This document shows, piece after piece, positions 14,685 through 63,639 of a stretch of DNA of 64,000 bases; the first letter of the stretch is position 1, and every line of letters starts with the position of its first letter. The stretch spans positions 64,001 to 128,000 of the forward strand of contig CAVSLC010000010.1 of assembly GCA_963728565.1 (NCBI GenBank). The letters run 5' to 3'. The stretch comes from an uncultured delta proteobacterium (GTDB lineage: Bacteria; Desulfobacterota; Binatia; UBA9968). The translations under genes were made by a program, and so were the position numbers. The notes below the pieces were generated by a model. That model searched no databases and was not told where the DNA came from. It worked only from the letters and a program-made list of their open reading frames with translations.

Positions 14685-14700
14685 TGGCACAGCCGTTGCG
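14685..14700 (+). promoter_or_regulatory. Sigma-54 -24/-12 promoter
   Basis: TGGCACAGCCGTTGCG (GG-N10-GC), about 87 nt upstream of ATG 14787. Confidence 0.75.
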
Positions 14701-14786
14701 TTGCTACCTGCATTCCCACCGGGCTAACGCTTAATCTCAGATCTCAGAATTCTTTGATCGAGTATTTAAATAAGGAGTGTTTATTT

Positions 14787-15368
14787 ATGGAGAACCAACC
14801 AAGCCAAAGCGCCACGGGTGTAAGCGACGGCGGCGCCGTCCTTATCAATAAGGCGAAGAGCGAGGCCGCCGGAGTGGCGCAGGATGTGAAGCGGCAGGGT
14901 CAGGAACAATTCGAAGCGCGTAAACGGACGGCGGCGGACCAAACTGAAAAGCTGGCCGGCGTGGTCGACCGAGTCTCCGCGGAACTCAAAAGTCAGAATC
15001 AAGAATCATTGGCTGATTACGCGGGTCAGTTGGCAGGCAGTATGAAGGATTTCGCCGAGAGCTTGAGGCAGCGGAATCTCGACGAGCTGGTCAAAGATAC
15101 CCAACAACTGGCGCGCCGCAATCCCACTCTTTTTCTCATGGGAAGTGTAGCGGTCGGCATAGCGCTTTCGAGGTTTTTCAAGGCATCGAGCCAGCGTAGC
15201 GGCGCCGGCCGGTACGACGAATCTGAGCTCTACGGCTCGAGCCAATCGGCCGTACAACCGATCACCTTTGAGTCGCGGCCGTCGGTAATATCCGAATCAG
15301 CGACGACAACACCCTCGTCAACAGCGGAGAGCCCGTCCTTCGCTGACGATCTGGAGAAAGGAGTTTGA
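14787..15368 (+). CDS. Hypothetical general-stress protein (helical, C-terminal membrane anchor)
   Basis: TAAGGAG RBS; ARRNPTLFLMGSVAVGIALSRFFKAS anchor motif typical of genes upstream of holin-X/DUF3618. Confidence 0.8.
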   Translation: MENQPSQSATGVSDGGAVLINKAKSEAAGVAQDVKRQGQEQFEARKRTAADQTEKLAGVVDRVSAELKSQNQESLADYAGQLAGSMKDFAESLRQRNLDELVKDTQQLARRNPTLFLMGSVAVGIALSRFFKASSQRSGAGRYDESELYGSSQSAVQPITFESRPSVISESATTTPSSTAESPSFADDLEKGV

Positions 15369-15370
15369 TC

Positions 15371-15808
15371 ATGGCAAAACAACCGCCATTTCAAGCTACG
15401 CCGGCAAGCGAATCAGCTCGCGTCGACCGGGAACCCGATTCGACAGCCGGCCTGCTAAGTCGTCTCATGGGGGAAGTGTCAACGTTGTTTCGCAAAGAGA
15501 TAGCCCTGGCAAAGGCAGAAGTGTCCGAAGCCGCTTCGGAAGCAAAAGCCGGAGCCGTCAGCCTGGTAGCTGGCGGGGCAATTGTTTTCGCCGCTATTCT
15601 CGTCCTGCTTGGCGCAATTGTCCTGCTGCTGGCCCAAAGGATGGAGCCTTGGTTGGCAGCTCTCATCGTCGCCGTGGTGGTAGGGGTCATTGGCTTTGTG
15701 ACGATCCAAAGCGGCAAGAAGAAGTTAGATCCATTGTCTTTCAAGCCTGAGCGGACTCAGGATGCGCTGCGCAAAGACAAGGAGATGGTTCAAAGGAGGG
15801 CGTCGTGA
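15371..15808 (+). CDS. Holin-X (DUF1469) family membrane protein
   Basis: LFRKEIALAKAE, two TM helices, PERT motif. Confidence 0.85.
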   Translation: MAKQPPFQATPASESARVDREPDSTAGLLSRLMGEVSTLFRKEIALAKAEVSEAASEAKAGAVSLVAGGAIVFAAILVLLGAIVLLLAQRMEPWLAALIVAVVVGVIGFVTIQSGKKKLDPLSFKPERTQDALRKDKEMVQRRAS

Positions 15809-16635
15809 GCGACATAAATAACGCAAGCAACCTCAGAGATGATGCGCGAAAAGATCCGGCAACCCTGGAACGAGAGATCGATCAGACCCGGGCTAACATG
15901 GACCGGACGCTCGGCGCATTGGAACGCAAGTTTTCGCCGGGTCAACTGTTGGATCAGGCAATGGAGTTCGCTCGGGAGAATGGCGGAGAGTTCGCAAACA
16001 ATCTCGGCCGCTCCATTAAGGAGAATCCGGTGCCGGCGCTGTTGACCGCAGTGGGACTCGTCTGGATGGTCGCCTCGAGCAATCGCCCGAGATCGCCGGT
16101 CGCCGATGCTTACGATGACCGCTATGCACGGGATGCTGCCAACGCCGTCGATTTCGACGATACAGGCTATGAGGACGATGCCGGCGATCAGAGGGAAGGG
16201 TTGACCGATAAAGCGCAACGACTCAAAGCCTCTGCCGAGGGAACCTTGAGTGAAGCAGGGCAACGGGTAAAGTCCGCCGCCGCGCAAGCTCGACAGAAGC
16301 TGACAGGCACTAAAGATACAGTGTCAGCGGGACTGAGAAGAACTTCGGGCACCGCACAAGTCCAAACGCAACGAGTGCGTGAGAGTTTCAACAGTCTTCT
16401 CACTGAGCAGCCGCTGCTCCTGGGAGCTTTGGGGATTGCTGTCGGAGCCGCCATCGGCGCTGCTTTGCCGGCGACCGAGCAAGAGGATCGGCTGTTCGGT
16501 TCGGCGCGCGACAAAGCCCTCTCCGAGGTCAAGGAGCGTGGGACCGAAACGTATGAGCAGGTGCGCGACAAGGTTAATGCTGTCGGCCAAGAGGCAAAGC
16601 AATCGATCTCCAATGCGGTCCGGGAATCCACTTAA
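15805..16635 (+). CDS. DUF3618 domain protein
   Basis: LEREIDQTRANMDRTLGALERKFSPGQL, EQPLLLGALGIAVGAAIGAALP and EDRLFG; GTGA overlap with the upstream gene. Confidence 0.85.
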   Translation: MSDINNASNLRDDARKDPATLEREIDQTRANMDRTLGALERKFSPGQLLDQAMEFARENGGEFANNLGRSIKENPVPALLTAVGLVWMVASSNRPRSPVADAYDDRYARDAANAVDFDDTGYEDDAGDQREGLTDKAQRLKASAEGTLSEAGQRVKSAAAQARQKLTGTKDTVSAGLRRTSGTAQVQTQRVRESFNSLLTEQPLLLGALGIAVGAAIGAALPATEQEDRLFGSARDKALSEVKERGTETYEQVRDKVNAVGQEAKQSISNAVREST

Positions 16636-16764
16636 TTGATGTTATTGGACCAAGCCTCACGTCAGACGGTACGAGGCTGCCGTTGAGTCTTATGTTCTGG
16701 GGTTCCGACCCCGGGATGGGCGTTAGTGCCTCTCGAGCTGAAGAGTTGTTCAGGAGTCCGTTAA

Positions 16765-17667
16765 ATGCAACGTAAGTCTATTTTGCAGTTTCTAAAAACC
16801 ACCATCAACGAGTGGGTCGAAGCAGAACCGTTCCAGCTGGCGGCCGCATTATCGTATTACACTCTATTTTCTCTTGCACCACTGCTGCTTATCGCTATCG
16901 GAGTCGCGGGGTTCGTTTTTGGCAGAGAGGCTGCGCAAAATCAGATCGTTGAAACGCTCCAGGGAATGATTGGGCAAGAGAGCGCCCAGACCGTTCAGGA
17001 AATGATCCAGACCTCAAACGAAAAACCGAAAACCGGAATGATCTCTACCGTCATCGGCTTTATCGCCCTTATGTTCGGCGCCGGCGGGGTCGTGGGTCAG
17101 CTGCAAACTTCGCTGAACAAAATTTGGGAAGTGACACCGAAACCGGGCCAGGGCATCTGGGGCTTCTTGCGGCAGCGGTTCTTCTCTTTTGCGATGGTGC
17201 TAGCAATCGGGTTCTTGCTGTTGGTCTCGCTTGTCGTGACCGCTGTTCTGAGTAGCTTCACGTCAATGCTGAGCAGCTTTTTAGGCGACGCGACATTCGT
17301 GGCTCATGCCATTGATATCCTGGTTTCCTTCGGATTTGTCACGTTACTATTTGCCCTGATTTATAAGTACGTGCCGGATGTAGAGATCCAGTGGAGAGAT
17401 GTCTGGGTCGGCGCCGCGTTAACTTCGATACTGTTCACCATAGGGAAGTATCTCATCGGACTCTACATCGGAACCAGCGGCGTCAGCTCGACCTTCGGCG
17501 CCGCGGGTTCGCTGATTACGATTCTCGTCTGGGTCTATTATTCATCTCTGATCTTTTTTCTTGGCGCCGAATTTACCAGAGTGTATGCGACCCAATATGG
17601 ATCCGGCGTTGCCCCTGCTAAAAACGCTCAACCGATGGATGCTGCGCCTCAGTCCGCGAACGCATGA
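16765..17667 (+). CDS. YihY/virulence factor BrkB family membrane protein
   Basis: AAALSYYTLFSLAP, FGAAGSL and WVYYSSLIFFLGAEF. Confidence 0.93.
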   Translation: MQRKSILQFLKTTINEWVEAEPFQLAAALSYYTLFSLAPLLLIAIGVAGFVFGREAAQNQIVETLQGMIGQESAQTVQEMIQTSNEKPKTGMISTVIGFIALMFGAGGVVGQLQTSLNKIWEVTPKPGQGIWGFLRQRFFSFAMVLAIGFLLLVSLVVTAVLSSFTSMLSSFLGDATFVAHAIDILVSFGFVTLLFALIYKYVPDVEIQWRDVWVGAALTSILFTIGKYLIGLYIGTSGVSSTFGAAGSLITILVWVYYSSLIFFLGAEFTRVYATQYGSGVAPAKNAQPMDAAPQSANA

Positions 17668-18249: not shown

Positions 18250-18489
18250 TCAGCCCATCGGGATCAGGAATATTTTCCTGCCATCCCTTTGAGCATACTG
18301 TCGTCCAATTTTAGGGCAGTGCACCCGTTTTTCCCTTAACTCTGCAATAATTGCGGGAGGATCTTTATTGGCAAAAGCCTCCTCGATGCTTTGTTTGCTG
18401 GCCGGCCCTCCATTTAAGCTGACAGTAATGCCAGTCGTATGCAGATCACCACATGCATTGCACACGGCACAGACGTTATACATAGCCAT
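18250..18489 (-). CDS. Small Cys-rich putative Zn-ribbon protein
   Basis: GGAGG RBS; CNACGDLH...HCPKIG. Confidence 0.7.
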   Translation of the reverse strand: MAMYNVCAVCNACGDLHTTGITVSLNGGPASKQSIEEAFANKDPPAIIAELREKRVHCPKIGRQYAQRDGRKIFLIPMG

Positions 18490-18577
18490 GCTGATACCCT
18501 CCGGTTCGCAGTTCCAGCTAAGAAAACCAATCGCCTGTTACTTCGCCGCGTTTGTTTATTCCAGGTTTGCTGCTCAG

Positions 18578-18769
18578 CTACCCCCTTTTAAGTTGAAGTT
18601 CGTCTAAATTAATCTCGCGCGTTTCGAGCCCAAGTTCTCGCGCCTTCTGATTGCATGGATGACACACAAGCATATTGAGCAGTACGCCACCCGGATCCTC
18701 GCTGATCACACGGTAGGCTTTGCCCGTAAGCGTTCGCTCGCAGTGATCGCAAAATAATTCCCTGGCCAT
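18578..18769 (-). CDS. Small CxxC...CxxC Zn-binding protein
   Basis: MARELFCDHC...LVCHPC. Confidence 0.7.
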   Translation of the reverse strand: MARELFCDHCERTLTGKAYRVISEDPGGVLLNMLVCHPCNQKARELGLETREINLDELQLKRG

Positions 18770-18782: not shown

Positions 18783-18798
18783 AGCAAGGCATATGCCA
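18783..18798 (-). promoter_or_regulatory. Sigma-54 -24/-12 promoter
   Basis: Minus strand TGGCATATGCCTTGCT, immediately upstream of ATG 18769. Confidence 0.7.
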
Positions 18799-19184: not shown

Positions 19185-20039
19185 CTACACTGATAACCGA
19201 AAGGTAAATTCATGTGAGCGATCTTCACTGGTTTTTCCGCGGGTCTGGTCGTTCACGTATCGATATTTCGACAGTGGGAATTTGCGAGAGGGGACGACCG
19301 GCCAGGCAACTACTTCCTGGAGCCGCGCGAAGTGAGCCAACGGTCTTTGTTCCGGTAGCTCGATTCCGGTCGACTGCGTCATCGTGTTCACGTCCAACTT
19401 CACTTCGGCATGTTGGAGAGCCCAGGGGGGATGATGAATCTCGCCAAAAACCACTCGATCCGGATTCAATGCGGTGAACAGGCAGTACCTCTCGGTGAGC
19501 CAATAATCGAGCGTGCCTGGAGTAGCTCGATACATCGGTCCGGCAGGCGCATAATCGGCGCGGAACTCCGCGCGTGCAGAGTTCTTGTGCTTGCGGACGC
19601 TGTCATAACGAATAATGTCCGCGACAGATTCGACTTTCATGCGCGCGTCGTAATAGGGCAAGCCAAGCCACCGCGCCACTCTAACGGCAACCCAACTCGC
19701 CGCATCGAGACTGAAAAACCATACGCCGCTTTTCCCCGCTGTTTTTACATAGGTTCGGACGTTGAGCTCCGCTAATGACAGTGGCAGCGGAACGTAACGG
19801 GGCCTAACGCCACTCATGTGGAACGGAACGATTCCGATCCAGGACCATCCGTCAAAGGTATCGAGCTCGACCGCTTTGGGGATCAGCGGTCTGATGTATT
19901 CAGGTCGAATCGGCCAATGAAGGAACAGCACATCATGCCAGCGCATGAACATCACCCAGGGGGATTTTGGTAGCGGCCAAGGCCGGTGCGAAGATTGGTC
20001 CGTCACCGGCGGCAGGCGCAAACTGCAACTCGAACTCAT
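19185..20039 (-). CDS. DUF2071 (YqjF) family protein
   Basis: WHDVLFLHW, ELNVRTYV, GVWFFSLDA and WLTERYCL. Confidence 0.9.
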   Translation of the reverse strand: MSSSCSLRLPPVTDQSSHRPWPLPKSPWVMFMRWHDVLFLHWPIRPEYIRPLIPKAVELDTFDGWSWIGIVPFHMSGVRPRYVPLPLSLAELNVRTYVKTAGKSGVWFFSLDAASWVAVRVARWLGLPYYDARMKVESVADIIRYDSVRKHKNSARAEFRADYAPAGPMYRATPGTLDYWLTERYCLFTALNPDRVVFGEIHHPPWALQHAEVKLDVNTMTQSTGIELPEQRPLAHFARLQEVVAWPVVPSRKFPLSKYRYVNDQTRGKTSEDRSHEFTFRLSV

Positions 20040-20142
20040 TGTAGTTGCGCCCGCTGCGAACGCGCCATCAATAACTCCCGTCGATTCACAGCTTGGAAGG
20101 TCATAGGGCTGGTAACGCCACGGCGCGTTGATCGGTGAACAT

Positions 20143-20904
20143 TTACTCGCGCGCATCAGTCGCGCCGGCGCTTGCGCCGATGATCCGATCGGTAATCCAC
20201 TGTAGTAGGAATGATGTAGAAGTTCGCTGCCACGACACGTCGGATAGGCCGTGATCTGCGTCTTTAATCAAACGATGCGTTACCGACCGTGCCCGGGTGA
20301 AAGCGGCCAAGTAATTAGCGATCACCGGATGCGGCACGGTATTGTCCCGCTCGGACTCGACGATCAGCACATCACCGGGAAACGCCGCGCACGCGCGCAG
20401 CGCCCGATTTTCCTCCGGAGCCACGGCCCGCCTGCGGTATGCGCAAAAGTCCGGATCTTCATGAAGCTTGCGCTTGGGCAACTCCCAGCCGGCATCGTTG
20501 TAGAGGGCCGGCGCGCGCAGCGCGACCCAGCGCACCGCTCGCCGAGAGGTCATTATGGCTGCGAGATACGCGCCATAACTGCTGCCGACAACTCCTAGAT
20601 CTGTGGGGTCCAAGCCAGGTTGGCTCGCCAATACATCATAGGCGGCCAAGAGGTCCCTTAGATTGTCTTCACGCGAAACGACCTCTCGTTGTCCATCGCT
20701 ACGCGCGTGACCGCGCAGATCGAAGGTCAAGCAGATAAAACCCAGCTCGGCGACGGCGCGCGCCCGATTGAGGTATTGCTGTTGATTGCCGCCCCAGCCG
20801 TGGACAAACAGCACGGCGGGTCCCGCGCTGACGCCGGCGATCAGCCGGCCCTCGATCCGTTGATCGTCAACCGCGATCTCGATCGGTTCATCATGAATTG
20901 TCAT
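20143..20904 (-). CDS. Alpha/beta hydrolase (S9-like)
   Basis: FVHGWGG, GSSYG nucleophile elbow, D(NTVP) and ADHGL; overlaps the DUF3182 stop. Confidence 0.9.
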   Translation of the reverse strand: MTIHDEPIEIAVDDQRIEGRLIAGVSAGPAVLFVHGWGGNQQQYLNRARAVAELGFICLTFDLRGHARSDGQREVVSREDNLRDLLAAYDVLASQPGLDPTDLGVVGSSYGAYLAAIMTSRRAVRWVALRAPALYNDAGWELPKRKLHEDPDFCAYRRRAVAPEENRALRACAAFPGDVLIVESERDNTVPHPVIANYLAAFTRARSVTHRLIKDADHGLSDVSWQRTSTSFLLQWITDRIIGASAGATDARE

Positions 20905-22039
20905 ACGGCTTGACCTGAGAATATTTGGTGATCGGTCCGACCCGATCATCGATTCCACGGAAATACACCACCGCATCCGGCGGCGCTTGGTTATCGCCAT
21001 AGACTTCGACACATGCTGCGCGCACCGCGCATAGGCTCGGGTCTGCGCGAAAAGCTTCAAGGGCGGCAATCTCCGCAGCGCTGGCACCGCCGATGCGCCA
21101 AGATTGTTCGAGTACGCCGCACGAGCGGCGCCCGTCATCTGCGACGACCTGAGCAACATCGTAGTTGCGCCGGGAGGCTAGCCATCCCGCAAAGGCCCGT
21201 GACGCGGCGGCTTCGTAGGTGCGCGCGTTGTTTATCGCCCATCGCGCCTGTGGCGGCAGCTCGAGTCTGAGCAGATCATCGTAGTCGCCGCGCACTACAA
21301 TTAAATCCGAGCCGCCGTAAACTGTGACGTCGCGGTTGTCTCTGGTCAACAACTGCCTGCCATAGTAGGTCGCCAACAGGTCCGCTACAGAAGTCTGGCC
21401 GACGCTGTAGGTTTCAATCCGATCGAAATTTTGTTCGATCACCGCCCCATAAAGGGCGAGTTCCGCTGGATCGATGTTGTCGAGAAGCGCCTCCAGATCC
21501 GCAGCGGACGTGATCACGGTCTGGCCGCGCCCGCCGATGCCACACGCCGGTTTAAAACGGGCGCGGCCGCGCGCCAGCACCCGTGCCGTTGCGAGGCGCA
21601 GGTCAGCAGGTGCGAATGCGGAAAAGCCAAAAAGAACCACACCCTGAACGCTGCGCGCGAACTCATCTGACCAACCTTCGGGAGCGAACGCGTCGCTCGA
21701 CACTAACGGGTGTGTGATGGTTTTGGTTGCAGCGAACGGATACGGAACGACGCCGCCAAACAAGTCATGATGATCGCGAATACCGAGTTTTCGGATTGAC
21801 TCAGATCCTGTGAGAGTGTCACTCGGAACGAAATACAACGGACCGGCGTAGCGGCGCGCCGCGTCGTAATCTCCGGCGAACTCATAATCCTTCAATGCCG
21901 CGAGCTTTGCCGCAATCATCGAGCGTGTGACGCTCTCGTGTTGAGCCGGCGGCTCGCAGGCACGTTCGGTATATTGAACCACTGCGCCTCGCGGGCACGA
22001 CGAACGAGTCCCGATGTCATCTTTTGTGAGAATCGTCAT
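20891..22039 (-). CDS. DUF3182 family ATP-grasp-like protein
   Basis: LFGGVVPYPFAATKTITHPL, KPACGIGGRGQ, SRRNYDV and LEQSWRIGGAS. Confidence 0.85.
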   Translation of the reverse strand: MTILTKDDIGTRSSCPRGAVVQYTERACEPPAQHESVTRSMIAAKLAALKDYEFAGDYDAARRYAGPLYFVPSDTLTGSESIRKLGIRDHHDLFGGVVPYPFAATKTITHPLVSSDAFAPEGWSDEFARSVQGVVLFGFSAFAPADLRLATARVLARGRARFKPACGIGGRGQTVITSAADLEALLDNIDPAELALYGAVIEQNFDRIETYSVGQTSVADLLATYYGRQLLTRDNRDVTVYGGSDLIVVRGDYDDLLRLELPPQARWAINNARTYEAAASRAFAGWLASRRNYDVAQVVADDGRRSCGVLEQSWRIGGASAAEIAALEAFRADPSLCAVRAACVEVYGDNQAPPDAVVYFRGIDDRVGPITKYSQVKPYDNS

Positions 22040-22478
22040 TTTTCTTTGCAGCGCTTGTGAATGGTCCGCAGCAATCGCATGCCTCTTCTGCGCCGCAAGC
22101 GCACGCCGGCTAAACTGATCGAGTGTCCTAATGTCGGCGCAAAACGAGGGCCATCACAATACTCACGACGCCGCTTCGAATCACCAGGGCCGTGTCCTTA
22201 AATCGGCACACGCCGCATCGGCGTGATCGATCGCGTAATTGAAACATGATTGGTGGTTAATAGTTTCTCCTTTGGGACGATCGAGTAGAAGATGATCTTG
22301 ATCAAGGATCGCTACGCGTAGCAGCATCATTGTTGTTAGTGCTTCGGCATCATCGCGGTCGCAGACAAATCCCGAACGATTGTATGTACCTTCACCAGCA
22401 GCCCGCTTGCGCGTGAGGCGCACACGTCAGATGATCATTGATTCGCCATGTCCGATGTGTGTGCGCGATGTATCCCAG

Positions 22479-22494
22479 TGGCATATTTGTTGCT
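22479..22494 (+). promoter_or_regulatory. Sigma-54 -24/-12 promoter of the glycan cluster
   Basis: TGGCATATTTGTTGCT, about 135 nt upstream of ATG 22630. Confidence 0.78.
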
Positions 22495-22629: not shown

Positions 22630-23743
22630 ATGGCTAGAATCCTCATCACCGGCGGAGCTGGATTTATTGGATCTCATTTAGCCGACGAGCTTCTGCACCA
22701 TGGTCATGCCGTCAAAGTACTTCGATCTCCTGTGCTCGCAAGTGCATGGCGCGGGAAAGCAAACGCCTGAATATTTGAATTCTGGTGTCGAACTCGTGCT
22801 TGGCGATGTGCGCGACCGCGCTGCGGTTCAGCGGGCGTTGCAGGGAGTTGACGCGGTCTATCATTTTGCCGCGGCGGTCGGCGTCGGCCAGAGCATGTAC
22901 GAGATCGAGCATTATGCCAGTATCAACGATATCGGCACCGCGGTGCTCCTCGAAGCGCTCATCAAACGTCCAGTCGAACGGCTGATCGTCGCGTCGAGTA
23001 TGAGCGTCTACGGCGAAGGACTTTATCGTTCGCGCCGTGGAAATATTCATAGTGCCGTCGAGCGCAGCCCGACGCAGCTGCGTTCCGCTCGTTGGGATCC
23101 GTTGGATGACGAAGGCGCGGCTCTAGAACCGATCCCCACGCCGGAGACCAAGACGCCGGCGCTCAGTTCGGTTTATGCGCTGTCGAAGTATGTTCAGGAA
23201 CGGATGTGCCTGATGATCGGCCGCGCCTACAATATTTCCACCGTCGCCCTGCGTTTTTTCAACGTGTACGGACCACGCCAGGCGCTATCGAACCCGTATA
23301 CCGGTGTTCTGGCAATTTTCGCCTCTCGTTTGCTCAACGGCAAAGCGCCACTGATTTTTGAGGATGGCGAACAACAACGGGACTTCGTCAATGTCAGAGA
23401 TGTGGTGCAGGCCTGCCGATTGTCTCTCGACGCCGCGGCAGCGCCGGACAACGTTTTCAACATCGGCAGCGGTCAGGCCTTTACTATTTCCGAGTTAGCT
23501 GAACGGATGGCCGACGCACTCGGGAAAAATCTCGAGCCGCAAATCACCGGTAAATATCGCATGGGTGACATACGCCACTGTTTTGCCGATATCGCGCTTG
23601 CCAGGTCGATCCTCGGCTACGCACCCCGGGTAGCGCTCGAAGATGGTGTCATGGAGCTTGCCGAGTGGCTCGAAGGGCAGATTGCCAACGATCACGTCGA
23701 TAGCGCCAGCGCCGAACTGGCAGCTCGAGGATTGACTCTGTGA
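22630..23743 (+). CDS. NAD-dependent epimerase/dehydratase, frameshifted near 22722
   Basis: [16 protein letters not shown] starts at 22630 in a frame missed by the track, then continues [15 protein letters not shown] and NPYTGV. Confidence 0.92.
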
Positions 23744-25932: not shown

Positions 25933-25935
25933 CCC

Positions 25936-28061: not shown

Positions 28062-28120
28062 CGACGCCGCATGAGCGAATCCTCAAGCGTGCGATCCGGA
28101 ATACTGGGAATGGCGGAGAC

Positions 28121-29245: not shown

Positions 29246-29247
29246 GA

Positions 29248-32155: not shown

Positions 32156-32194
32156 GAACCACGCAGCAGCTGTGCTGCGGCAGAATGACGCGAA

Positions 32195-45418: not shown

Positions 45419-45606
45419 CGAAGCGGGTGTTTTCACCCTCGATGTTTGCCCCACGTTATCCTTGAGTGTCGCGCCAGCGCGGATTTCTCGTCCCAAAGCC
45501 GGTACGAGCGCACGAAGCTCGCATGCAGAACTGGGACGACAATCGTTGGTCAAGGATCATGGATGCGCATGAGTGCGCCCAGCGCAACCGGGCGATCTGC
45601 GGTGAG

Positions 45607-49994: not shown

Positions 49995-49996
49995 CG

Positions 49997-53049: not shown

Positions 53050-53572
53050 GAATCGAGCTCGGGTTTAAGCTGCGCAAAAATTCCACAGTCTTATCGACAT
53101 CGAACTTCGGATCCGCCGCCTCGATGCATAGGAAAAAACGGTCGCGGCTCGCCAGTGCGAAACGCTCGACGTTGAATACCGGATGATACGGCATCGGCAA
53201 CCCGTTCAATCCGAGCATGCCCAAAACCGCGGCCAGGGCGGCGCCCAGAATTGTCGTCTCGAAAGTGACCGGAATAAAGGCGGGCCAGCTGTTATACGGC
53301 TTGCCCCCGACAATCAGCGGATAGTCGATCACCGATGTCCAATACTGCAGGTAGAAACCGCCGATGCCGCCGAGGAGGCCGCCGATCAGCACGATCAACG
53401 GTAGCTGTGTGCGTTTAAAGCCGATCACTTCGGCCAATCCTTCAACCGGAAACGGGCTGTACGCATCCATCCGCCGGTAGCCGGCGGCGTGGGCGCGCTC
53501 GGCGCCGACGCGGAGCATTTCCGGACTATCGAATTCGGCCATTAGGCCATAAATTAGCGGCGCCTGTTTCAC
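53033..53572 (-). CDS. actD: Alternative complex III subunit D (DUF3341)
   Basis: DAYSPFPVEG, GGKPYNSWPAFIPVTFE and DRFFLCIE. Confidence 0.93.
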   Translation of the reverse strand: MKQAPLIYGLMAEFDSPEMLRVGAERAHAAGYRRMDAYSPFPVEGLAEVIGFKRTQLPLIVLIGGLLGGIGGFYLQYWTSVIDYPLIVGGKPYNSWPAFIPVTFETTILGAALAAVLGMLGLNGLPMPYHPVFNVERFALASRDRFFLCIEAADPKFDVDKTVEFLRSLNPSSIHEVEP

Positions 53573-54952: not shown

Positions 54953-57900
54953 TTTTTCTTGGCTCCGAGGTCCGGATTAGGATTTTTAAGCCGGGCCAGA
55001 TATGTTGTTCGCGGCCGGGTGTTGAGCTCGGCCAGCATTGCATAGTTGAGCGGATCCTTCTTCAGCTTTGACACCGCGGCGCCGGCATCGCTCATATCGC
55101 CGAAGATGATCGCTTCGGTTGGACAAGCCTGCGCGCAGGCGGTGACGACTTCGCCGTCGCGTATCGGTCGATTTTCCTTTTTCGCTTCGATGCGGCCATG
55201 GTTGATCCGTTGCACGCAATACGTACATTTTTCCATAACGCCCCGGCTTCTGACCGTGACGTCGGGGTTGTAACCCAGCTTGCGCACTTCGGTTCGGAAA
55301 TCGGCATACTGATAGAAATTGAAGCGTCGAACTTTATAAGGACAGTTGTTGGAACAATAGCGGGTGCCGACGCAGCGGTTGTAAACCATGTCGTTTAAGC
55401 CCTCGGTGCTGTGTGCCGTGGCGCCTACCGGACAAACCGGTTCACAGGGCGCGTTCTCGCAATGCATGCACGGCACCGGCTGGAACAGAACGTCGGGGTT
55501 TTCCGCGGGCCCTTCGTAGTAACGATCGACTCTCAACCAAAGCATCTCCCGGCCTCGGGCAACTTCCGCTTTGCCGACCACTGGAATGTTGTTTTCCGCT
55601 TGGCAGGCGACGACGCAGGCGTTGCAGCCGATGCATACACTGGTGTCAATCACCATGGCCCAAGCGCTGCCATCGAACTTGTGCTGGGGATAGAGCGACA
55701 AATCGGCCGGCGGTTCATGGGCCATCTCATGAACGAACTCCGGATGCTCACGGAACTGTTCCAAGGTGCCGCTGCGAACCAGGGGCCGTCCTACCATCGT
55801 ATGATGGCCCTGCGTGGTGACAAGATCGTGGCGTCGGCCGGTTTTGCTTATCTGCAAGCCGCCGGCAAACCACGGCTGGCCGGTGGTACGCAGAGGATAA
55901 GCGTTGAAGCCGAGTGCGCTGCCCACCTTGCCGGCGCGGGTGCGGCCATAGCCCAGATGCACGGTGACAGACTGATCAGCTTGGCCCGGGTTGATCCAAA
56001 CCGGCGCGGCGATCGCAGAATCGCCCAAGCGGAGTTCGACGACGTCGCCATTGTGCAATGTCAGACGTTGCGCCGTGCGCGGACTGATCAATGCCGCATT
56101 GTCCCAGGTCATCTTGCTCAACGGTTTCGGCAATTCCTGGAGCCAAGCGTTGTTGGCGAAACGGCCGTCCCAAATCGTCGGATCGGGCCGAAAAACCAGC
56201 TCCAAACCTTCCGCCGCATTTGCCCCAGCAGCGTCCGGCCTCGACGGCGCCGCAGTCTGCGCGCCAACGGCGGCGGTCCTGCGCCTTGCGCCGCTATCGG
56301 GAATAAACCCGTCATGCAAAGCGCGGCGCCACCATTCGTCAAAATCGGCGCCGCCGATGCGGCCGCGCCAGAATTGGCGCACGATGTCATGAGCGGATGT
56401 CTCCGCGCTACCGTTGAGCGCCGCGAATAACTCATGCGGCGATTTGCCGCCATAGAGCGGCGCGATCAACGGCTGCTGAATAGTTACGATGCCGTCGAAG
56501 CTTCGGGCATCGCCCCAGGTCTCCAAGAAATGAGCTTGCGGAACATGCCACTGGCACAGCGCCGAGGTCTCATCTTCATATTCGCCAAAATGCGTGCGAA
56601 ACCGAACTTTAGACAGCGATTCGGCAAAACGCAGATCCGCCGGCGCGCTGTAAACCGGGTTAGTTCCGATGATGAACAGCGCTTCGACAGCGCCTTGCGC
56701 CATGTCGCGCGCGAGCCCTTGGAGGGAGCTTGCGCCGCCGTCGAGTGATTCCTCGGCAGGCTCGGCATAAACCACCGTGGTCCCGACGTTGCCAAGCAGT
56801 TGGTTCATCGAGTGGGCTAGAGCGTGCACCCCGGGGGGCTGAAATTCGCCGGCGATAACCAGGCTCGAGCCGCGATGCTGTTGCAGGTCTGCGGCAACCG
56901 TGTCGATCCAGGCTTTGTACGGCGCAAGTTCTTGAGCATCCTCGGCGCCGGGCTGTTTGGCGCCCAGGCGGCGCGCCACCGCCTGCGCCAGCGATCCGAT
57001 CCGGCCCGCGGCTATGGCGAGGCGATGATCCGCGATTGACCCGGTTATCGACGGCGTCGGTTCGGCGACATAGAGCCGATTTATTTCCGCCTGCTCGCCG
57101 CGCACTTTTCTGCGATTGGAGAAATCACGCGCATAGCGAAGTGAGCCGGGCTCGCTGAAGAGAAAATCCGAGTCCAGTGAGAGAATTACATCGGCGCCAT
57201 CGAAACGGTAAAGGCTCTCGGCTTCCTGTCCCAGGGCGATCCGAGCGCCGTCGCGAGTGTTATCGCGCGACACCGGTTCGTAGGCATGCCACTTTGCCTG
57301 CGGGAATTGCTTTAACAGAGTCCTGATCTGTTCTCCCAGAGTCGGCGAGGTTACGGTGCCTGTGAGCAAGCGCAGCCCCGCTCCTCCTGACCGGGCGCAG
57401 GGAATCAAGTCGCGTGCGCGCCGTCCGGACGAAGTCCTCCCAGGTGGTGATGGCGCTGGAGTGGCGCACGACTTGAGAACGTTCCGGATCGTAAAGGCTT
57501 AGAATCGATGCCTGGATGAATGGGTTGGTGCCGCCCAAACTCGCCGGATGCTGCGGGTTGCCTTCAATCTTGATCGGCCTGCCTTCATAGCTCTTGACCA
57601 GAATCCCGGTCGCAACTCCTGCCAGTGTGAATGCGCTGGCGTAATCGAGAGTTTCACCGGCGGTGCGCTCCTCGGGAGACTGAACGTAGGGGACGATTTG
57701 CTCGGTGGGCCGCTCAGCGCATGCGCCGAGACCGGCCAGAGCCAGTGAAGCGCCCATGATCCGTAAAAACTCGCGCCGGCTCAGTCCATTGCTCAACAAC
57801 GAAGCGGCGCCGGGAAACTCTCCTTCGACAATTCGCTCGAATTCATCGCTTTGCGCCAGCTCTTCCAAGCTGCGCCAGTAGCGCCGGCCCTGCAGTCCGG

Positions 57901-57955
57901 ACAGCCGCTGGCGCCATTGCGTGGCGACTTGATTCGTGGTTCCGAGTTGACTCAC
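54949..57955 (-). CDS. actB: Alternative complex III subunit B (molybdopterin-oxidoreductase fold plus Fe-S), frameshifted near 57395
   Basis: YWRSLEEL, Tat motif [15 protein letters not shown]; C-terminal [23 protein letters not shown] and EKCTYC. Confidence 0.95.
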
Positions 57956-57965
57956 CTGGTTATCC

Positions 57966-58622
57966 TCATCTATGGCAAACCGAGCAGTCGGTTAGCTGTT
58001 CAGTGCGAACGTTGTATTTTCGAACCAGCTCCATGCCGAGCTCCGACTGGTTCGCCGGCGCAGTCCAGGACATGTTGAAGACTTCCTCGCGGGGACGGAG
58101 GTATTGCTCGGGATTGCGATGACAATCCAGGCACCATTCCATCAGCAGCGATTTTTCCTGGGCAACCAGCGGCATCTGATCGACCGCTCCATGACAAGTC
58201 GCGCAGCCGACGCCCTTGTTCACATGGATGCTGTGATTGAAATAGGCAAACTCCGCCAGGTTGTGAACCCGGGTCCAGCGCAGCGGTCGACCGGTGCGGT
58301 AACTTTCGCGCACCGGTTCGAGCATCGGACTGTTAGTCCAAATCTGTGAATGGCAATTCATGCAGATCGACGTTGACGGAATCCCCGCGAATGCGCTTTG
58401 CTCCACTGCGGTGTGGCAATATCGGCAATCGATGCCGAGCCCGCTGACATGATGCTTGTGGCTGAACGGGACTGGTTGCGGGCGCACCACGTTTGCCTGA
58501 GTGACATAAGATGATCGGTTCAGCTCCGCGAGTAGCCATAAGAGCCCGCCGATCAGAAACACGGCGCCAAAAATAGTTAATTTGGAGACCGTGTTGGTGC
58601 TGGGATGAAATATTTGAGCCAT
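57966..58622 (-). CDS. actA: Alternative complex III pentaheme cytochrome c
   Basis: Five CxxCH motifs (CRYCH, CMNCH, CATCH, CLDCH, CSVCH) and an N-terminal TM helix. Confidence 0.95.
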   Translation of the reverse strand: MAQIFHPSTNTVSKLTIFGAVFLIGGLLWLLAELNRSSYVTQANVVRPQPVPFSHKHHVSGLGIDCRYCHTAVEQSAFAGIPSTSICMNCHSQIWTNSPMLEPVRESYRTGRPLRWTRVHNLAEFAYFNHSIHVNKGVGCATCHGAVDQMPLVAQEKSLLMEWCLDCHRNPEQYLRPREEVFNMSWTAPANQSELGMELVRKYNVRTEQLTDCSVCHR

Positions 58623-58635
58623 TCACCCGCTGTGA

Positions 58636-59139
58636 TTAAGGTTTGCGCCCGGTTGCGCTCCAGGCGATGTTGCGCTTTTCGTCGTACATAACGATCGCGG
58701 GAAGCTCGTCAGGATCAAGGCCGATGCCCATGCGCAGATTGCCTTGGCTGTCGGCCAATCCCATGTCCGGCGAACCGGCGTCCTTCAAACCCACAATCAG
58801 CCGCGGTTTTCCATTGGCATCGCCGAACGCAATGCCGGCGTTGCCGTCGTTGGCCACTTTGAATTCAGCGCGAATCTTGCCGCTCTGATCCGCCAAAACC
58901 AGAGTCGATGCTTCCGTCTTGCTGTCCACGGCGAGGGTGCCGCGCACATTGCCGCTCTTGTCTCGCAAAACGAAACTTTGCGCTTCGACGACGCTTGCCA
59001 CGTTGGGCTTGCTTTGACCCATAAGGAAGGCGGCCATAATCAAGACGGCGAGGCCCACGCTCGTGAGGCGATAACGAAAATTCTGCTGCTCGAGATTTGC
59101 CAGCCGCTGGAGAATTTCTGCGGTTTCTAAGTCAGCCAT
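58636..59139 (-). CDS. Membrane-anchored hypothetical protein with ~22-aa beta repeats
   Basis: TM helix followed by LRDKSGNVR, LADQSGKIR, FGDANGKPR, LADSQGNLR and MYDEKRNI repeats. Confidence 0.8.
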   Translation of the reverse strand: MADLETAEILQRLANLEQQNFRYRLTSVGLAVLIMAAFLMGQSKPNVASVVEAQSFVLRDKSGNVRGTLAVDSKTEASTLVLADQSGKIRAEFKVANDGNAGIAFGDANGKPRLIVGLKDAGSPDMGLADSQGNLRMGIGLDPDELPAIVMYDEKRNIAWSATGRKP

Positions 59140-59155
59140 TTCTGATCCTCGGCGA

Positions 59156-60450
59156 TTAAAGTTCGAGTAACATCCGCACCGGATCCTCGACCGCTGTTTT
59201 TATCTGTTTTAAAAAGGTGACCGCCTCGCGCCCGTCGATGAGGCGATGATCGTAGCTCAAGGCCACATACATCATCGGCCGGATTACAACAGCGCCGTCA
59301 CGCGCCACCGGCCGCTCCTGCATCGCGTGCATTCCCAGGATAGCGCTCTGCGGCGGGTTGATAATCGGCGTTGACAGCAGCGATCCGTAAACGCCGCCGT
59401 TAGTGATCGTAAAAGTACCGCCTTGCAATTCGTCCGGCTTCAACTTGTTCTCCCGAGCGCGGCGGGCAAAGTCGCCGATGGCGATTTCGATTGCCGCAAA
59501 GCTCATGCTTTGGGCATCGCGCAGCACCGGCACGACCAGCCCGCGCCCGCCGCCCACGGCTACGCCAATGTCGAAATAGTTCCGGTACACGATACTACCG
59601 TCGCGTATTTCCGCGTTGACCTCCGGAATAAGCTTGAGCGCTTCAATTGCCGCTCTGACAAAAAAAGACATCAAGCCGAGTCTGACGTTGTATTTTTCCT
59701 TGAAAGCATCTTGATGGATCTGCCGCAGCTGATTGACGATCGACATGTCGATCTCGTTAAAAGTCGTCAGCAGGGCGGCAGTTTGCTGTGCCTGGACTAA
59801 CCGTTCGGCAAGTCGGCGGCGCAACTGGCTCATCGGCACGAGTTTTTCCTGCCGCTCGCTTCGGCTATCCCTGGCAATAGGCGATACTGAAATCTCGGCA
59901 GGCCGCGTCTGCTCTGACGGCGCCTCACGATCGGGAACCGATGGCCTGGCCTCTAGCTCAATTTCAGCGCCTTGGGTTGGTCGCGGCCGGCGCGCTCGTT
60001 TGGCCTTGTTGCGGCGGTTGCTCGATGAAAACTTGCAGTGGGCTCAGTAGCGCTGGGTCGCGCATCCGGCCCGTCCTCGGAATCCGCTTCGCCGGCGCTG
60101 ACCGGCTGTTCCGGCTTGGTTACTTTAGCCCGGCGGCCCTTTGGTTTTTTTGCTTCCGATGATTCAGCGACGCTCGTCTGATCTTCTCCAGCTCCATCGA
60201 CACTGGTATCTCCAGCCTGGTCCAGATGGCCGATAACTTCGCCGACTTGCGCGGTTTCTCCGCTGGCTTTTAAAATCTTGCTGAGCCTGCCTGCTTGCGG
60301 CGCAACAATTTCAACCGTCGCCTTGTCGGTTTCGATGACGACGAGATCCTCATCCTGCTGCACCGAGTCGCCGACGGCTTTGAGCCAATCACCAATTTCA
60401 ACCTCGGTGATTGATTCGCCGACCTCGGGAACCTTAACCTCAATGGTCAT
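59156..60450 (-). CDS. sucB: Dihydrolipoamide succinyltransferase (E2o), frameshifted in the linker
   Basis: Lipoyl motif ETDKA; [23 protein letters not shown] and YDHRLIDG. Confidence 0.93.
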
Positions 60451-60502
60451 TGCCCACCTTATGGAATTGACCGGTCCTCAACAGCATTAAAGCTAGCGCT
60501 CG

Positions 60503-63292
60503 CTACTGGTTTCCGAAAGCGGCGGCCAGCAGCTCGGTTTGTTGCTGATGATGCCGGCTTGCCGAGCCGGTTGCCGGACTGGCGGAAGCGGCGCGCGCGA
60601 CCACCGAAAAAGGAAATCGATCGAAAAGCTTGTTGCCGAGCTGAAGGTGCCAAAAGCATGCGGCGCCCATGTTGCGAGGTTCTTCTTGAATCCACACTAC
60701 CGGCGTGCCGGCGCCGTAGCCTTGCAGAACCCCCCGCAGCCGCTCTTCCGGCACCGGATAAAATTGCTCGATGCGCACGATGGCGACGTCATCGCGGTTC
60801 ATCTCCGCGCGCCTTTTCTCCAGGTCGTAATAAACTTTGCCGCTGCACAAGAGAATTCTCCGACAATCCTGGCGCCCGCTAAGATCGCCGATGACGGTTT
60901 CAAACTCTCCATCAGCCAAGGCGTCGAGATCGGAGACTGCCCCCGGATGACGCAGCAAACTTTTGGGAGTCATAATCACCAACGGCTTACGCCATCTGCG
61001 CAGCACTTGTCGGCGCAGGCAATGAAAGTATTGCGCTGGCGTTGTCGGATAAACCACCTGGAGATTATCCTTGGAGCAAAGCTGCAGAAACCGTTCGATG
61101 CGCGCGCTCGAGTGCTCCGGTCCCATGCCTTCAAAGCCATGCGGGAGTAACAAAACCAAGCCGCTCAGCCTGCGCCATTTTTCTTCGGCGCTGGTGATGA
61201 ATTGGTCGATGATGACTTGCGCGGCATTGACGAAATCGCCGAACTGCGCTTCCCACAAAGTCAGAGCCTCGGGATAGTCAAGACTGTAGCCGTATTCGAA
61301 ACCCAATACGCCGGTTTCGGAAAGCGGGCTGTTGATGATCTCCACCGGAGCTTGCCCGCGCTGCAGGTGCTGCAGCGGAACATAGGCGTGCCCATCGTGG
61401 TAATCACGCAGCACCCCATGGCGATGGCTGAAAGTCCCGCGCGCGCTGTCCTGCCCGGACAAGCGTACCCTGATTCCTTGGACGGCCAAACTCGCAAACG
61501 CCAAGGCTTCTGCTGCGGACCAGTCGATGGGCCGTGTTCCACGGGCCATTTCCTGACGCAGCTCTAGCCCGCGTTTGATCTTTGGGTGCGGCTGAAAATC
61601 TTTAGGGATGCGCGCCAGAGCTTCAAGCAATGCCGAGAGCCGTTCTCGCTTCACCGCCGTGGGGACCGGTGCTGCTGCCGGTTCGAGTCCGCCGGAATAC
61701 CCGGCCCAGAAGCTGCCAAAACTCTGCGGCGTCGGAACGGCGCTGGTGCTGCGCGCCTGCGCCAATTCGTTCTCCAAATCGCTCCGGCGCTGCGCCACCA
61801 ACCGGTTTGCTTCACCGGCATCGATGATTTTTTCCCGCAGCAGTTTTTCCAAATAGAGATCGCGCACCGGCCGATGCTTCTTAATCGCTTGATAGAGTCT
61901 CGGTTGCGTAAACGTCGGTTCATCGCCCTCGTTGTGGCCCCAGCGGCGATAGCCATACATATCGATCACCGCATCGCGTTTGAACGTGCGCCGGAAATCC
62001 ATCGCCAGGCCGACGACCTGCGCGACCGCTTCGGGATCATCGCCGTTGACGTGAAAAATAGGCACCTGCAACATCTTGGCAATGTCGGTGGCGTAACGGC
62101 TGGAGCGCGCTTCTTTCGGGGATGTCGTGAAACCGATTTGGTTGTTTATCACCACGTGCAGCACACCGCCGATGCTATAGCCCTCCAGCTGACTCAGGTT
62201 GAGGGTTTCCTGAGTCACTCCTTCGCCGGCGAAAGCCGCGTCGCCATGAATCAGCAGCGCCATGCCACGGCCGTGTTGCTGGTCGCCCGTACGGTCCTGC
62301 TTGGCGCGCATACGTCCGATCGCTACCGGATTAACGAACTCGAGATGGCTCGGGTTGAAACAAAGGGAAAGATGTATTTTCTTCCCGGACGCGGTTTCGT
62401 AGTCATTGCTGTAGCCCAGGTGGTATTTCACATCGCCGCCGCCACTCTCGGCGGTGAGAGGATCGTCGAATTCACGAAAAATCTCCCACGCACTCTTGCC
62501 GATAATATTGGCGAGGACATTCAAGCGGCCGCGGTGGGCCATCGCCAGGACGATTTCCTGCAAACCGTCACGCGCCGCGTGATCGATGGCAAAATCCAGC
62601 AGCGGTATGAGGCTTTCGGCGCCTTCCAGTGAAAAGCTTTTGGCGCCAACGAATTTTTTTCTGACGAATTCTTCGAACGTCACCGCGTCGGTGAGACGCG
62701 CGAGAATCCTCAGCTTTTGCTTATGATCCAGCTCAAGGTGATTTTGGCTTTCTTCCATGCGCCGCTGCAGCCAATTTCGAATTGCCGGCTCGTCGATATG
62801 CATGAACTCGACACCGATGGCGCCGCAGTAAGTACGACGCAACCGTTCGACAATCTCGCCGATAGTCAACGGGCCGTTCCAGGGCAACCCAACGGCGGGA
62901 AAAAGCCGCTTCATGTCATCGACGGTGAGGCCGTAAAACTCCGGGTCGAGAGAAGGTTGCGGATCATTGGATAAGCCGAGCGGATCGATGCTGGCCGCTT
63001 TATGCCCAAGACTGCGAAACGCTCTGATCATCTCGTTGACTTGTTCTTGTAAGGTAGAGGCGCGGGACGCGACGCTGGTTGCCGAGCCGCTTGCATGCGC
63101 GACGCCGCCATTGCTTTCACTGCTCGGCGGCATCGGCGTGGTTTGGCCGTCGGAGCCATCGCCGTTGAGCGCGGCGAAGTAGGCGCGCCAGTCCTGATCT
63201 ACCGATGATGGATCGACAACGTAAGCGGCGTAAAGCGCTTCTATATAAGCCAGATTAGCTGAATTGGAGACCTGTTGGATCCTGCTGTTCAT
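60503..63292 (-). CDS. sucA: 2-oxoglutarate dehydrogenase E1
   Basis: FSLEG, MAHRGRLN, DVKYHLG, HGDAAF, GHNEGD and WEAQFGDF. Confidence 0.97.
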   Translation of the reverse strand: MNSRIQQVSNSANLAYIEALYAAYVVDPSSVDQDWRAYFAALNGDGSDGQTTPMPPSSESNGGVAHASGSATSVASRASTLQEQVNEMIRAFRSLGHKAASIDPLGLSNDPQPSLDPEFYGLTVDDMKRLFPAVGLPWNGPLTIGEIVERLRRTYCGAIGVEFMHIDEPAIRNWLQRRMEESQNHLELDHKQKLRILARLTDAVTFEEFVRKKFVGAKSFSLEGAESLIPLLDFAIDHAARDGLQEIVLAMAHRGRLNVLANIIGKSAWEIFREFDDPLTAESGGGDVKYHLGYSNDYETASGKKIHLSLCFNPSHLEFVNPVAIGRMRAKQDRTGDQQHGRGMALLIHGDAAFAGEGVTQETLNLSQLEGYSIGGVLHVVINNQIGFTTSPKEARSSRYATDIAKMLQVPIFHVNGDDPEAVAQVVGLAMDFRRTFKRDAVIDMYGYRRWGHNEGDEPTFTQPRLYQAIKKHRPVRDLYLEKLLREKIIDAGEANRLVAQRRSDLENELAQARSTSAVPTPQSFGSFWAGYSGGLEPAAAPVPTAVKRERLSALLEALARIPKDFQPHPKIKRGLELRQEMARGTRPIDWSAAEALAFASLAVQGIRVRLSGQDSARGTFSHRHGVLRDYHDGHAYVPLQHLQRGQAPVEIINSPLSETGVLGFEYGYSLDYPEALTLWEAQFGDFVNAAQVIIDQFITSAEEKWRRLSGLVLLLPHGFEGMGPEHSSARIERFLQLCSKDNLQVVYPTTPAQYFHCLRRQVLRRWRKPLVIMTPKSLLRHPGAVSDLDALADGEFETVIGDLSGRQDCRRILLCSGKVYYDLEKRRAEMNRDDVAIVRIEQFYPVPEERLRGVLQGYGAGTPVVWIQEEPRNMGAACFWHLQLGNKLFDRFPFSVVARAASASPATGSASRHHQQQTELLAAAFGNQ

Positions 63293-63470
63293 GATCGCAT
63301 CAAATCAGAAAAAAAATTCCAATCAACAGACAAGATTCTTCCCGGAATAGAGTTGGGCAATTGGCGCCGAGGTATTCATGAGCCTCTATTTGGTTAGGGG
63401 AGCGATGGAGTATGTCAATATGAAGCGCCGGTCACCACGCCGGTGTTAACAGTTTGCTAATCAAAAATTC

Positions 63471-63486
63471 AGCAAGGTATATGCCA
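63471..63486 (-). promoter_or_regulatory. Sigma-54 -24/-12 promoter of the suc-act-cta operon
   Basis: Minus strand TGGCATATACCTTGCT, about 180 nt upstream of sucA. Confidence 0.75.
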
Positions 63487-63623
63487 CGACCTGTGCGTCG
63501 CTTGTCGTATGACAACTTTTGGGTTGGCGATCATGCGTCCTGCTGCCGCTACAACGAGAGTGCTTCCTGTCCGATCCGCGCTACATGAGAATCACGGAGC
63601 TGCGTTCTGTCTCCTAAAGACAA

Positions 63624-63639
63624 TGGCATATTTGTTGCG
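63624..63639 (+). promoter_or_regulatory. Sigma-54 -24/-12 promoter of the sigma-70 gene
   Basis: TGGCATATTTGTTGCG; first 15 nt identical to the 22479 site. Confidence 0.78.

Follow-up and report, generated by a model that had tools for sequence, protein, structure and literature searches.

Seven sigma-54 promoters in a Binatia genome as probable members of a general stress response regulon under one NtrC-type activator

The 64,000-nucleotide stretch of DNA analysed here (the window, G000:C10:64001-128000) comes from the assembly G000 (4.53 Mb, 80.6% complete) of an uncultured member of Binatia and carries seven GG-N10-GC elements, taken in an earlier note for RpoN-dependent -24/-12 promoters of a single stress or dormancy programme. 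Probably they serve as sigma-54 promoters for a regulon of the general stress response (GSR), governed by one NtrC-type bacterial enhancer-binding protein (bEBP), the likely candidate being bEBP-B, encoded to the right of the window. At the level of sequence the single-programme reading is well supported, as is the stress function, by a shared enhancer, its helical phase, and the gene content, while the self-contained resting-cell island also proposed in the earlier note is not borne out.

All seven elements were located in their claimed places with exact spacing, and all are intergenic and sense-oriented; six read TGGCATAT-N3-TTGC, and the sites at 22479 and 63624 have 15 nt in common, as had been claimed. 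The distance from the 16-mer to the first ATG, given as 14 to 180 nt, was measured as 86, 13, 135, 52, 38, 178, and 59 nt, the true start behind site 22479 being 22630, where a frameshift conceals it from lists of open reading frames (ORFs). The strict pattern TGGCAY-N5-TTGC occurs seven times in the window versus 0.39 ± 0.62 times in 100 shuffles, none of which reached seven. G000 has 95 strict sites, of which, by the gene calls made in this analysis, 83 are intergenic and 72 lie in sense at most 400 nt from a gene; wrong -24/-12 spacings, used as a control, gave 15-24 hits, 2-4 of them intergenic. Chance or composition as the origin of the sites is ruled out by the shuffles and the spacing controls, and the RpoN promoter reading is supported by the spacing, the shuffles, and conservation. 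A position weight matrix (PWM) built from sites outside the window found 12 matches in it, comprising the seven, two intergenic variants at 2862(+) and 22153(-), both accompanied by an enhancer match in phase, and three in coding sequence. With the variants counted, the galactose utilisation operon (GH2, galT, galK, galE, galM; 7402-13670) is the sole larger unit of the window with no candidate sigma-54 site. The block at 2.7-14.5 kb is missing at the syntenic place in the close relative G005 and present in G004.

The window is enriched over the genome-wide rate (seven sites versus 1.34 expected, P=5e-4) and lies inside a site cluster at C10:24-182 kb, with 21 sites versus 3.3 expected. A second cluster, at C23:197-283 kb, has 12 sites versus 1.8 expected; this second sigma-54 island (C23:195000-285000, 12 strict sites) encodes Usp, CBS, Hsp20, RtcB, NAPRTase, pyruvate dehydrogenase, and NrfAH, and holds a PAS-GAF kinase, a bEBP-B paralogue, and its own motif TTCTCA-N4-TGAGAA. 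On other contigs of G000 sites precede genes for DUF4142, GlgX, YihY, holin-X, hemerythrin, and SRPBCC proteins, and also glnK-amtB, so not all 95 sites can belong to one regulon. Conservation upstream of orthologues, a check proposed in the earlier note, was found across relatives with one exception in G003. G005 retains all seven window sites, and site 22479 is present in 6/6 genomes with the glycan cassette, despite other upstream genes in G003 and G007, which indicates that the promoter moves with its operon. The divergent pair of sites between sucA and the sigma gene is kept in 5/5 genus genomes having that sequence, while the sigma protein drops to 55% identity. A site lies at most 900 nt from csbD at 17 of the 18 loci in the genus, the remaining locus having just 14 nt of upstream sequence; at five csbD loci from other genera the same pattern found none, that of G018 having a GGGCAT variant.

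Alignments revealed conserved 18-mers upstream of the window promoters, in pairs 31-32 bp apart, with the consensus YGTCYCA-N4-TGRGACR at most of them, and motif discovery on 14 flanking promoters yielded TGTctCa-N4-tGagACA. An enhancer PWM trained on these 14 promoters only gave the seven held-out window promoters higher scores than 1435 background regions (p=8e-5). The matches are phased on the helix at 10.5 bp, with R=0.66 for 43 held-out matches, 0.92 for the eight in the window, and 0.02 for the background, and a pair spacing of 30-33 bp was found in 16/68 versus 21/212. In G018, which belongs to another genus, 13 promoters gave TGTCnCA-N4-TGnGACA (p=6e-8, R=0.72); three promoters tested in G008 and G017 showed neither consensus nor phase, and dyad enumeration in one genome gave weak hits only (TGT-12-ACA in 5/21). 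Discovery in the C23 island returned a different, strong motif, TTCtCA-N4-TGaGAA, far above the null. The G-type half-site is found at 6/7 window promoters versus 2/12 of the C23 island, and the T-type at 1/7 versus 8/12.

No bEBP was found among the 63 window ORFs scanned, in agreement with the earlier note. G000 has about 18 bEBP loci, two of which border the island, one at C10:9915, beside RsbR, S, T, X and two kinases, and the other, bEBP-B, at C10:132910, 4.9 kb right of the window. The latter is an orphan REC-AAA-HTH protein with GAFTGA, whose C-terminal 139 aa are 97-99% identical in 6/7 genus genomes, 78% in G018, and 65% in G010. Its gene has its own sigma-54 site and two near-perfect palindromes in G000, G002, G005, G006, G007, and G018, and the best palindrome copies are those of this promoter. 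The recognition helix reads SRSSLY versus SLSTLY in the C23-island paralogue; by analogy with the NtrC family, its Arg may contact the G of TGT. sucA is found only in the seven genus genomes, G010, and G018 (9/30 relatives), and in G010 and G018 it lies about 6 kb from bEBP-B. As predicted, of the 920 sites in the nine family genomes with sucA, 92 (6.7-14% per genome) match enhancer plus promoter, versus 15 of 669 (0-4% per genome) in the nine other family genomes, with no per-genome overlap. Thus the helix type of bEBP-B, the enhancer, sucA, and the window-type alternative complex III (ACIII) co-occur across relatives, and bEBP-B is probably the activator of the window promoters. On plasmids it has no close relative (best 41%), and of 120 homologues listed those with a name come from Ca. 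Binatia (3), Deltaproteobacteria (2), Eisenbacteria (1), and Udaeobacter (1).

Several points weigh against one bEBP-B programme. Run de novo on just the 14 training promoters, motif discovery fell short of significance (LL 54.9, with 2/15 random sets higher), and the enhancer PWM places promoters of the C23 island and of other groups above background as well, since the motif cores are alike. The G/T half-site contrast rests on a pattern chosen after the window footprints had been seen, a choice of which the phasing is independent. Six promoters of G010 yield the consensus with a phase that is not significant (R=0.22); the enhancer match of promoter 2 is weak, and the pair of promoter 3 is 217 nt away. 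In G003 the site of promoter 5 has an altered -12 GC, and bEBP-B was not found in that assembly, though it has the sites. The phyletic match covers just three genera, so its statistics overstate, and the stressosome occurs in 6/7 genus genomes and in 0/11 other family genomes, including G010 and G018. Finally, all Binatota are stated to encode ACIII (PMC8262859), which would make it housekeeping; the window-type ACIII was found in 9/30 relatives and one distant match, and the statement was not reproduced for that type.

Two other arrangements of activators have to be considered. The island could be merely sigma-54-rich, as is usual in deltaproteobacteria-like genomes, and hold several independent bEBP regulons, in line with the number of bEBPs, the 59-149 sites per genome in 17/18 family genomes, the C23 island with its own activator and motif, and the weak enhancers at promoters 2 and 3. 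This is unlikely, however, since most window promoters agree in palindrome type, pair spacing, and phase, and since the enhancer co-occurs with bEBP-B. Alternatively, one programme could have as its direct activator the stressosome-linked bEBP at C10:9915, which is 87-99% conserved and adjoins RsbRSTX in 5/6 relatives with RsbR; its helix is atypical, however, its own operon is headed by a sigma-54 site with a B-type enhancer in G003 and G007, and the best palindromes stand at the gene of bEBP-B instead, all of which makes this role very improbable. It is worth adding that a paralogue of this protein (C18:40813-43657) has on either side a sigma-54 site facing outward towards a 61-aa gene, the two sites being identical.

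The promoter reading has to be reconciled with rpoN, whose lack in the genome was named in the earlier note as a refutation. rpoN is indeed not found in the G000 assembly, but neither are the orthologues of its neighbours, the whole lptB-rpoN-hpf-ptsN-rapZ locus being absent, and rpoN is present in 30/30 relatives. Moreover, the ferredoxin oxidoreductase family, found in 29/30 relatives and in several of them 7-19 kb from rpoN, is absent from G000 alone in the genus, and both absences fit a single assembly gap. True loss of rpoN is the less likely reading, since essential neighbours are gone as well and all the relatives carry the gene. The sigma factors of G000 comprise RpoD, two RpoD-like paralogues, an RpoH-like factor, and at least six extracytoplasmic function (ECF) factors. 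Both RpoD-like paralogues are preceded by conserved sigma-54 sites; for that of the window, the claim of a second sigma under sigma-54 is strengthened by the conservation of site 63624 in five relatives. The other paralogue (C5:115317-116960) has the sigma-54-like site TGGCAT..TTCGC, kept in G004, G005, and G007; in G000, G005, and G007 it is accompanied by an enhancer match near -57. No SigB/F/G was found above cut-off in 5/5 genomes and no RpoS among four long sigmas scanned, the second sigma of the window scoring 239 bits against the RpoS cut-off of 379. The six ECFs reached no named equivalog cut-off in a scan that was not EcfG-specific.

The known general stress responses are run by three sigma-70-family factors, SigB, RpoS, and EcfG. 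The flanks of the island encode CsbD, BON, DUF1328, DUF3309, DUF748, PRC-barrel, TamAB, AI-2E, and PLD proteins, as well as topoisomerase IB, LigD, TreS/GlgE/GlgB, OtsAB, and Hsp20, which we take to be the usual general-stress set. Typical targets are therefore present together with orthologues in a mapped GSR regulon, while the window promoters are of the -24/-12 type and not those of SigB, RpoS, or EcfG. With the defining sigma replaced by sigma-54 and an activator, the system is not a member of the SigB/EcfG class, though it would work like one.

The mapped regulon is that of S. meliloti 1021, where the glycan cassette and the unit at 14787 have their orthologues grouped together on pSymB. 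SMb20239-51 are 38-70% and SMb20227-29 28-34% identical to the window units, SMb20245 being 51% identical to the first gene behind site 22479. According to the available part of PMC3616915, SMb20227-29, 20239, 20241-43, 20245-47, and 20249-51 are upregulated when rpoE2 is overexpressed, and RpoE2 promoters with their transcription start sites are mapped for SMb20245 and SMb20249 (supplement 5); its RpoE2 table showed no oxidase, oxoglutarate, or ferritin gene under four words tried. The RpoE2/EcfG system differs in having an ECF sigma, an anti-sigma partner switch, and GGAAC..GTT promoters, where the window would have -24/-12 promoters with enhancers and an ATPase activator. The glycan cassette, with genes for epimerases, a Zn-dependent alcohol dehydrogenase (Zn-ADH), inositol-3-P synthase, a methyltransferase, phosphatases, a GT4 glycosyltransferase, and four CgeB-type glycosyltransferases (GTs), resembles the Rta_06860 neighbourhood in its TIGR04290 methyltransferase (382 versus the cut-off of 300), inositol-3-P synthase, epimerases, and CgeB-type GTs; it is a single sigma-54 operon in the window, in contrast to split EcfG-driven units in S. 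meliloti, and no TIGR04295 radical SAM gene was seen in the window cluster. A sigma-54-like site between divergent genes of a TIGR04290 cassette on an Azospirillum brasilense plasmid (L327:12231) reads TGGAAT..TTGC, with no EcfG motif.

The same cassette bears on the proposed resting-cell or cyst differentiation, in which a coat-like glycan, a wall protein, and the second sigma would build a dormant form. Such a programme would account for the CgeB-type GTs, the peptidoglycan (PG)-binding protein, the trehalose genes, and a cascade from sigma-54 to sigma-70; TIGR04290 takes its name from a gene of the cyst former Ramlibacter, and sigma-54 activators are described as serving myxobacterial development. 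Nevertheless, the block is about 180 kb, the regulon reaches other contigs, and the remaining gene set is generic GSR. Besides, S. meliloti is not a cyst former. There, as far as the available part of PMC3616915 goes, the cassette is a plain and ordinary RpoE2 target, and the available part of PMC3164672 does not mention RpoN and ties neither Rta_06860 nor RpoN to cysts. Island Pfam scans gave no morphogenetic genes of resting forms beyond the CgeB-type GTs, no genome-wide search having been made. Dormant-cell differentiation finds no specific support in these results, and as an explanation of the island it is improbable.

The respiratory unit joins a 2-oxoglutarate dehydrogenase (OGDH) to ACIII and a caa3 oxidase. 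In G000 sucA and ACIII each occur once; the genome also has a further cytochrome b and a further COX1, and a single E3 gene lies elsewhere. In G018 ACIII and sucAB are separate, each with its own sigma-54 promoter and enhancers, and in G010 sucA has its own sigma-54 promoter and enhancer, none being seen before its ACIII. These copy numbers and separate promoters support the earlier claim of an accessory OGDH-ACIII-caa3 chain within the programme, in which OGDH may replace an oxygen-labile ferredoxin enzyme. Among 80 distant genomes, with several loci incomplete, none has a sigma-54 site upstream of sucA and two have sucAB beside ACIII, so the gene order exists elsewhere without the promoter of the window. 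One locus with ACIII-caa3-sucAB and 40-71% identity to the window proteins (L050) is labelled Bifidobacterium, a label that looks wrong. The content of the unit could also suggest a narrower response to air exposure or an oxidative shift, as in drying soil, instead of a GSR: OGDH stands beside ferredoxin-type enzymes, caa3, hemerythrin, and ferritin are present, Gram-negative stressosomes are reported as O2 sensors, and NmpR of M. xanthus is a precedent for an O2-linked sigma-54 regulon. This is very unlikely, considering that the same promoters serve osmotic, DNA-repair, and envelope genes, and that the Usp/CBS hypoxia-type genes are in the separate C23 island.

The GSR regulon under bEBP-B would then work as follows. 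Stress kinases (the stressosome-linked hybrid kinase and other PAS kinases of the island, where kinases lie at C10:14553, 16835, 36531, and 63421) would phosphorylate bEBP-B, which would bind the paired YGTCYCA-N4-TGRGACR sites seen in the sequence and, by established bEBP chemistry, open sigma-54 complexes. Judging from its promoter, it would activate its own gene. Its further targets would be the classic GSR set, made up of the TIGR04290 glycan cassette and the genes for CsbD, BON, trehalose/glycogen enzymes, LigD, TopIB, ferritin, hemerythrin, and NdiAB, as well as the accessory NAD-linked OGDH with ACIII-caa3, perhaps an oxygen-robust route beside the ferredoxin-type oxoacid oxidoreductases, the cytochrome b complex, and the second oxidase of the lineage. 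The RpoD-like second sigma would putatively widen the programme.

Compared with the SigB/stressosome system of Bacillus, the island has a likeness in the RsbR/S/T/X cluster at its edge and CsbD-type targets; it differs in the lack of SigB/F/G noted above and in that its stressosome precedes hybrid kinases and is flanked by a REC-bEBP, the link to bEBP-B being a candidate only. NmpRSTU of M. xanthus, in the available part of PMC11841059, similarly has an NtrC-like activator, paired palindromes, sigma-54, and dispersed oxygen-use operons, with its own GCGCA-N5-TGCGC, 14-15 nt between sites, seven promoters, and 23 genes; the window system has another 18-mer, dozens of promoters, and GSR content, and the C23 island looks closer to it. 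In Borrelia burgdorferi, as given in the available part of PMC4014564, a bEBP and sigma-54 likewise transcribe a second sigma-70-family factor (Rrp2-RpoN-RpoS), whereas that of the window is RpoD-like, not RpoS, and stress genes would also be direct sigma-54 targets.

It can be put forward tentatively, and with more doubt than confidence, that the bacterial GSR has a fourth and widespread mode of control, by sigma-54 together with an activator that regulates its own gene. Soil lineages (Binatia, with probably some Planctomycetota, Acidobacteriota, and Burkholderiaceae) would apply it to the mobile cassettes that are under EcfG in alphaproteobacteria, one of them a stress-specific ACIII-caa3 chain, here joined to an OGDH replacing ferredoxin-linked enzymes. 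The evidence for such usage outside Binatia is patchy. In eight plasmid ACIII loci taken from 19 hits, an EcfG motif (as motif only) precedes ACIII at 4/5 alphaproteobacterial loci (Bradyrhizobium, Rhizobium, Mesorhizobium, Nitrobacter), a sigma-54-like site at 2/2 betaproteobacterial ones, that of P. sabiae below the PWM threshold, and neither at those of Methylobacterium and Planctomyces; the background is 20 and 11 of 335 tiles, respectively. A strict site lies within 200 nt of csbD at 3/30 loci outside Binatia versus 3/770 control tiles, and in 28 named genomes none was found at the Anaeromyxobacter, Nannocystis, Pseudomonas, Azotobacter, Nevskia, Cupriavidus, and B. latens loci. No sigma-54-run general stress regulon was found in the literature, as represented by titles and abstract beginnings, most subscription papers lying outside. 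The main text of a cross-phylum sigma-54 survey (PMC12316311), so far as available, reports Usp enrichment in Planctomycetia and mentions no general stress, CsbD, trehalose, or Binatia, its supplements, not covered here, being possibly relevant; the available part of PMC6180224 contributes nothing further, and that of PMC4676750 gives no phenotype for rpoN2 and lacks the word "stress". If true, the sigma-54 version would be off until the ATPase fires, with kinases in place of anti-sigmas, and would explain how a common uncultured soil lineage protects itself without SigB, RpoS, or EcfG. The natural comparison is between the same cassettes with EcfG promoters in rhizobia and with sigma-54 promoters in the window; by it, the orphan TIGR04290 glycan cassette and the window type of ACIII would be assigned to stress physiology. 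The named activator, the 18-bp site, and the Arg/Leu difference in the helix would be testable in E. coli with no need to culture the host.

Table 1. Promoters, enhancers, and transcription units of the window, in order of position (G001-G007, relatives in which a site is kept)
Feature	Positions	Strand	Basis or remark
Variant sigma-54 site TGGAAC..TTTGC before GT/UDP-galactopyranose mutase unit; enhancer match at -46	2862..2877	+	PWM
Enhancer pair of promoter 1 (-89, -58)	14596..14644	+	Footprint in 4 species; PWM
Sigma-54 promoter 1	14685..14700	+	Kept in G004, G005, G006, G007, also with differing upstream neighbour
NdiA-like / holin-X / DUF3618 / YihY unit	14787..17667	+	Homologues in S. 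meliloti: SMb20227-29, induced by RpoE2
Two small Cys-rich proteins, 63 and 79 aa, no Pfam family	18250..18769	-	
Sigma-54 promoter 2, almost leaderless; weak enhancer match (-110)	18783..18798	-	Kept in G004, G005, G006
DUF3182 / alpha-beta hydrolase / DUF2071 unit	19185..21982	-	
Variant sigma-54 site of DUF3182 unit; enhancer match at -57	22138..22153	-	PWM
Enhancer pair 32 bp apart, -217 from promoter 3	22230..22279	.	GGGACG and ACA invariant, 6/6 aligned species
Sigma-54 promoter 3	22479..22494	+	Kept in 6/6 genomes having the operon
TIGR04290 (Rta_06860) neighbourhood	22630..39571	+	Orthologous to SMb20239-51
Secreted Ser/Gly-rich protein with PG_binding_1 domain	39734..40615	-	
Sigma-54 promoter 4	40668..40683	-	Kept in G004, G005
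Enhancer pair of promoter 4 (-87, -119)	40753..40802	.	PWM
BON lipoprotein, Gfo/Idh/MocA, hemerythrin, ferritin-like, transglycosylase-associated protein, LLM oxidoreductase	41106..45364	-	
Sigma-54 promoter 5	45403..45418	-	Kept in G002, G004, G005, G006, G007; -12 GC altered in G003
Enhancer pair of promoter 5 (-88, -120)	45489..45538	.	Strong footprint, 4/4 aligned species
sucA-sucB-(167-aa)-actABCDEF(G)-SCO-caa3 operon; no E3 gene; several frameshifts	46485..63292	-	
Sigma-54 promoter 6 (sucA)	63471..63486	-	Kept in G001, G002, G004, G005, G006
Enhancer pair common to divergent promoters 6 (-67/-99) and 7 (-88/-56)	63536..63585	.	
Sigma-54 promoter 7	63624..63639	+	Kept in G001, G002, G004, G005, G006
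5' end of 520-aa RpoD-like sigma-70 paralogue	63699..64000	+	Regions 1.2-4, no 1.1; below RpoD and RpoS cut-offs

Among the products of the units in Table 1, the hemerythrin is PA2171-like, under the cut-off. The 63-aa CxxC..CxxC protein (18578-18769) has three paralogues, at C10:8401, C9:99417, and C5:35217; at least the window and C5 copies start 13-14 nt behind a sigma-54 site, and the C10:8401 copy is the first gene of the stressosome-linked bEBP operon. The 167-aa gene between sucB and actA (58636-59139) is absent there in G002, G003, and G007; for both the 63-aa and the 167-aa protein, Atlas searches returned unnamed clusters only. Soil RNA was also compared with the window: 24 metatranscriptomes contain at most 0.16 of its words, and RNA contigs of four runs span 30/30 bins of the window at 44-64 kb, mostly 90-99% alike, but are not counted as support, since starts, strand, and levels cannot be read from them. 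Frameshifts in conserved genes, at 622-731, 8902-9017, 22630-22700, 48019-48245, 57260-57408, and 59839-59953, are probably assembly errors, as COX1 is intact in relatives and the RNA contigs are one base shorter at 57390. The 5' leader of the glycan operon contains the element GGTTCTGTCCCGA (22570-22582), conserved in six aligned species, perhaps a downstream half-site, perhaps an RNA element.

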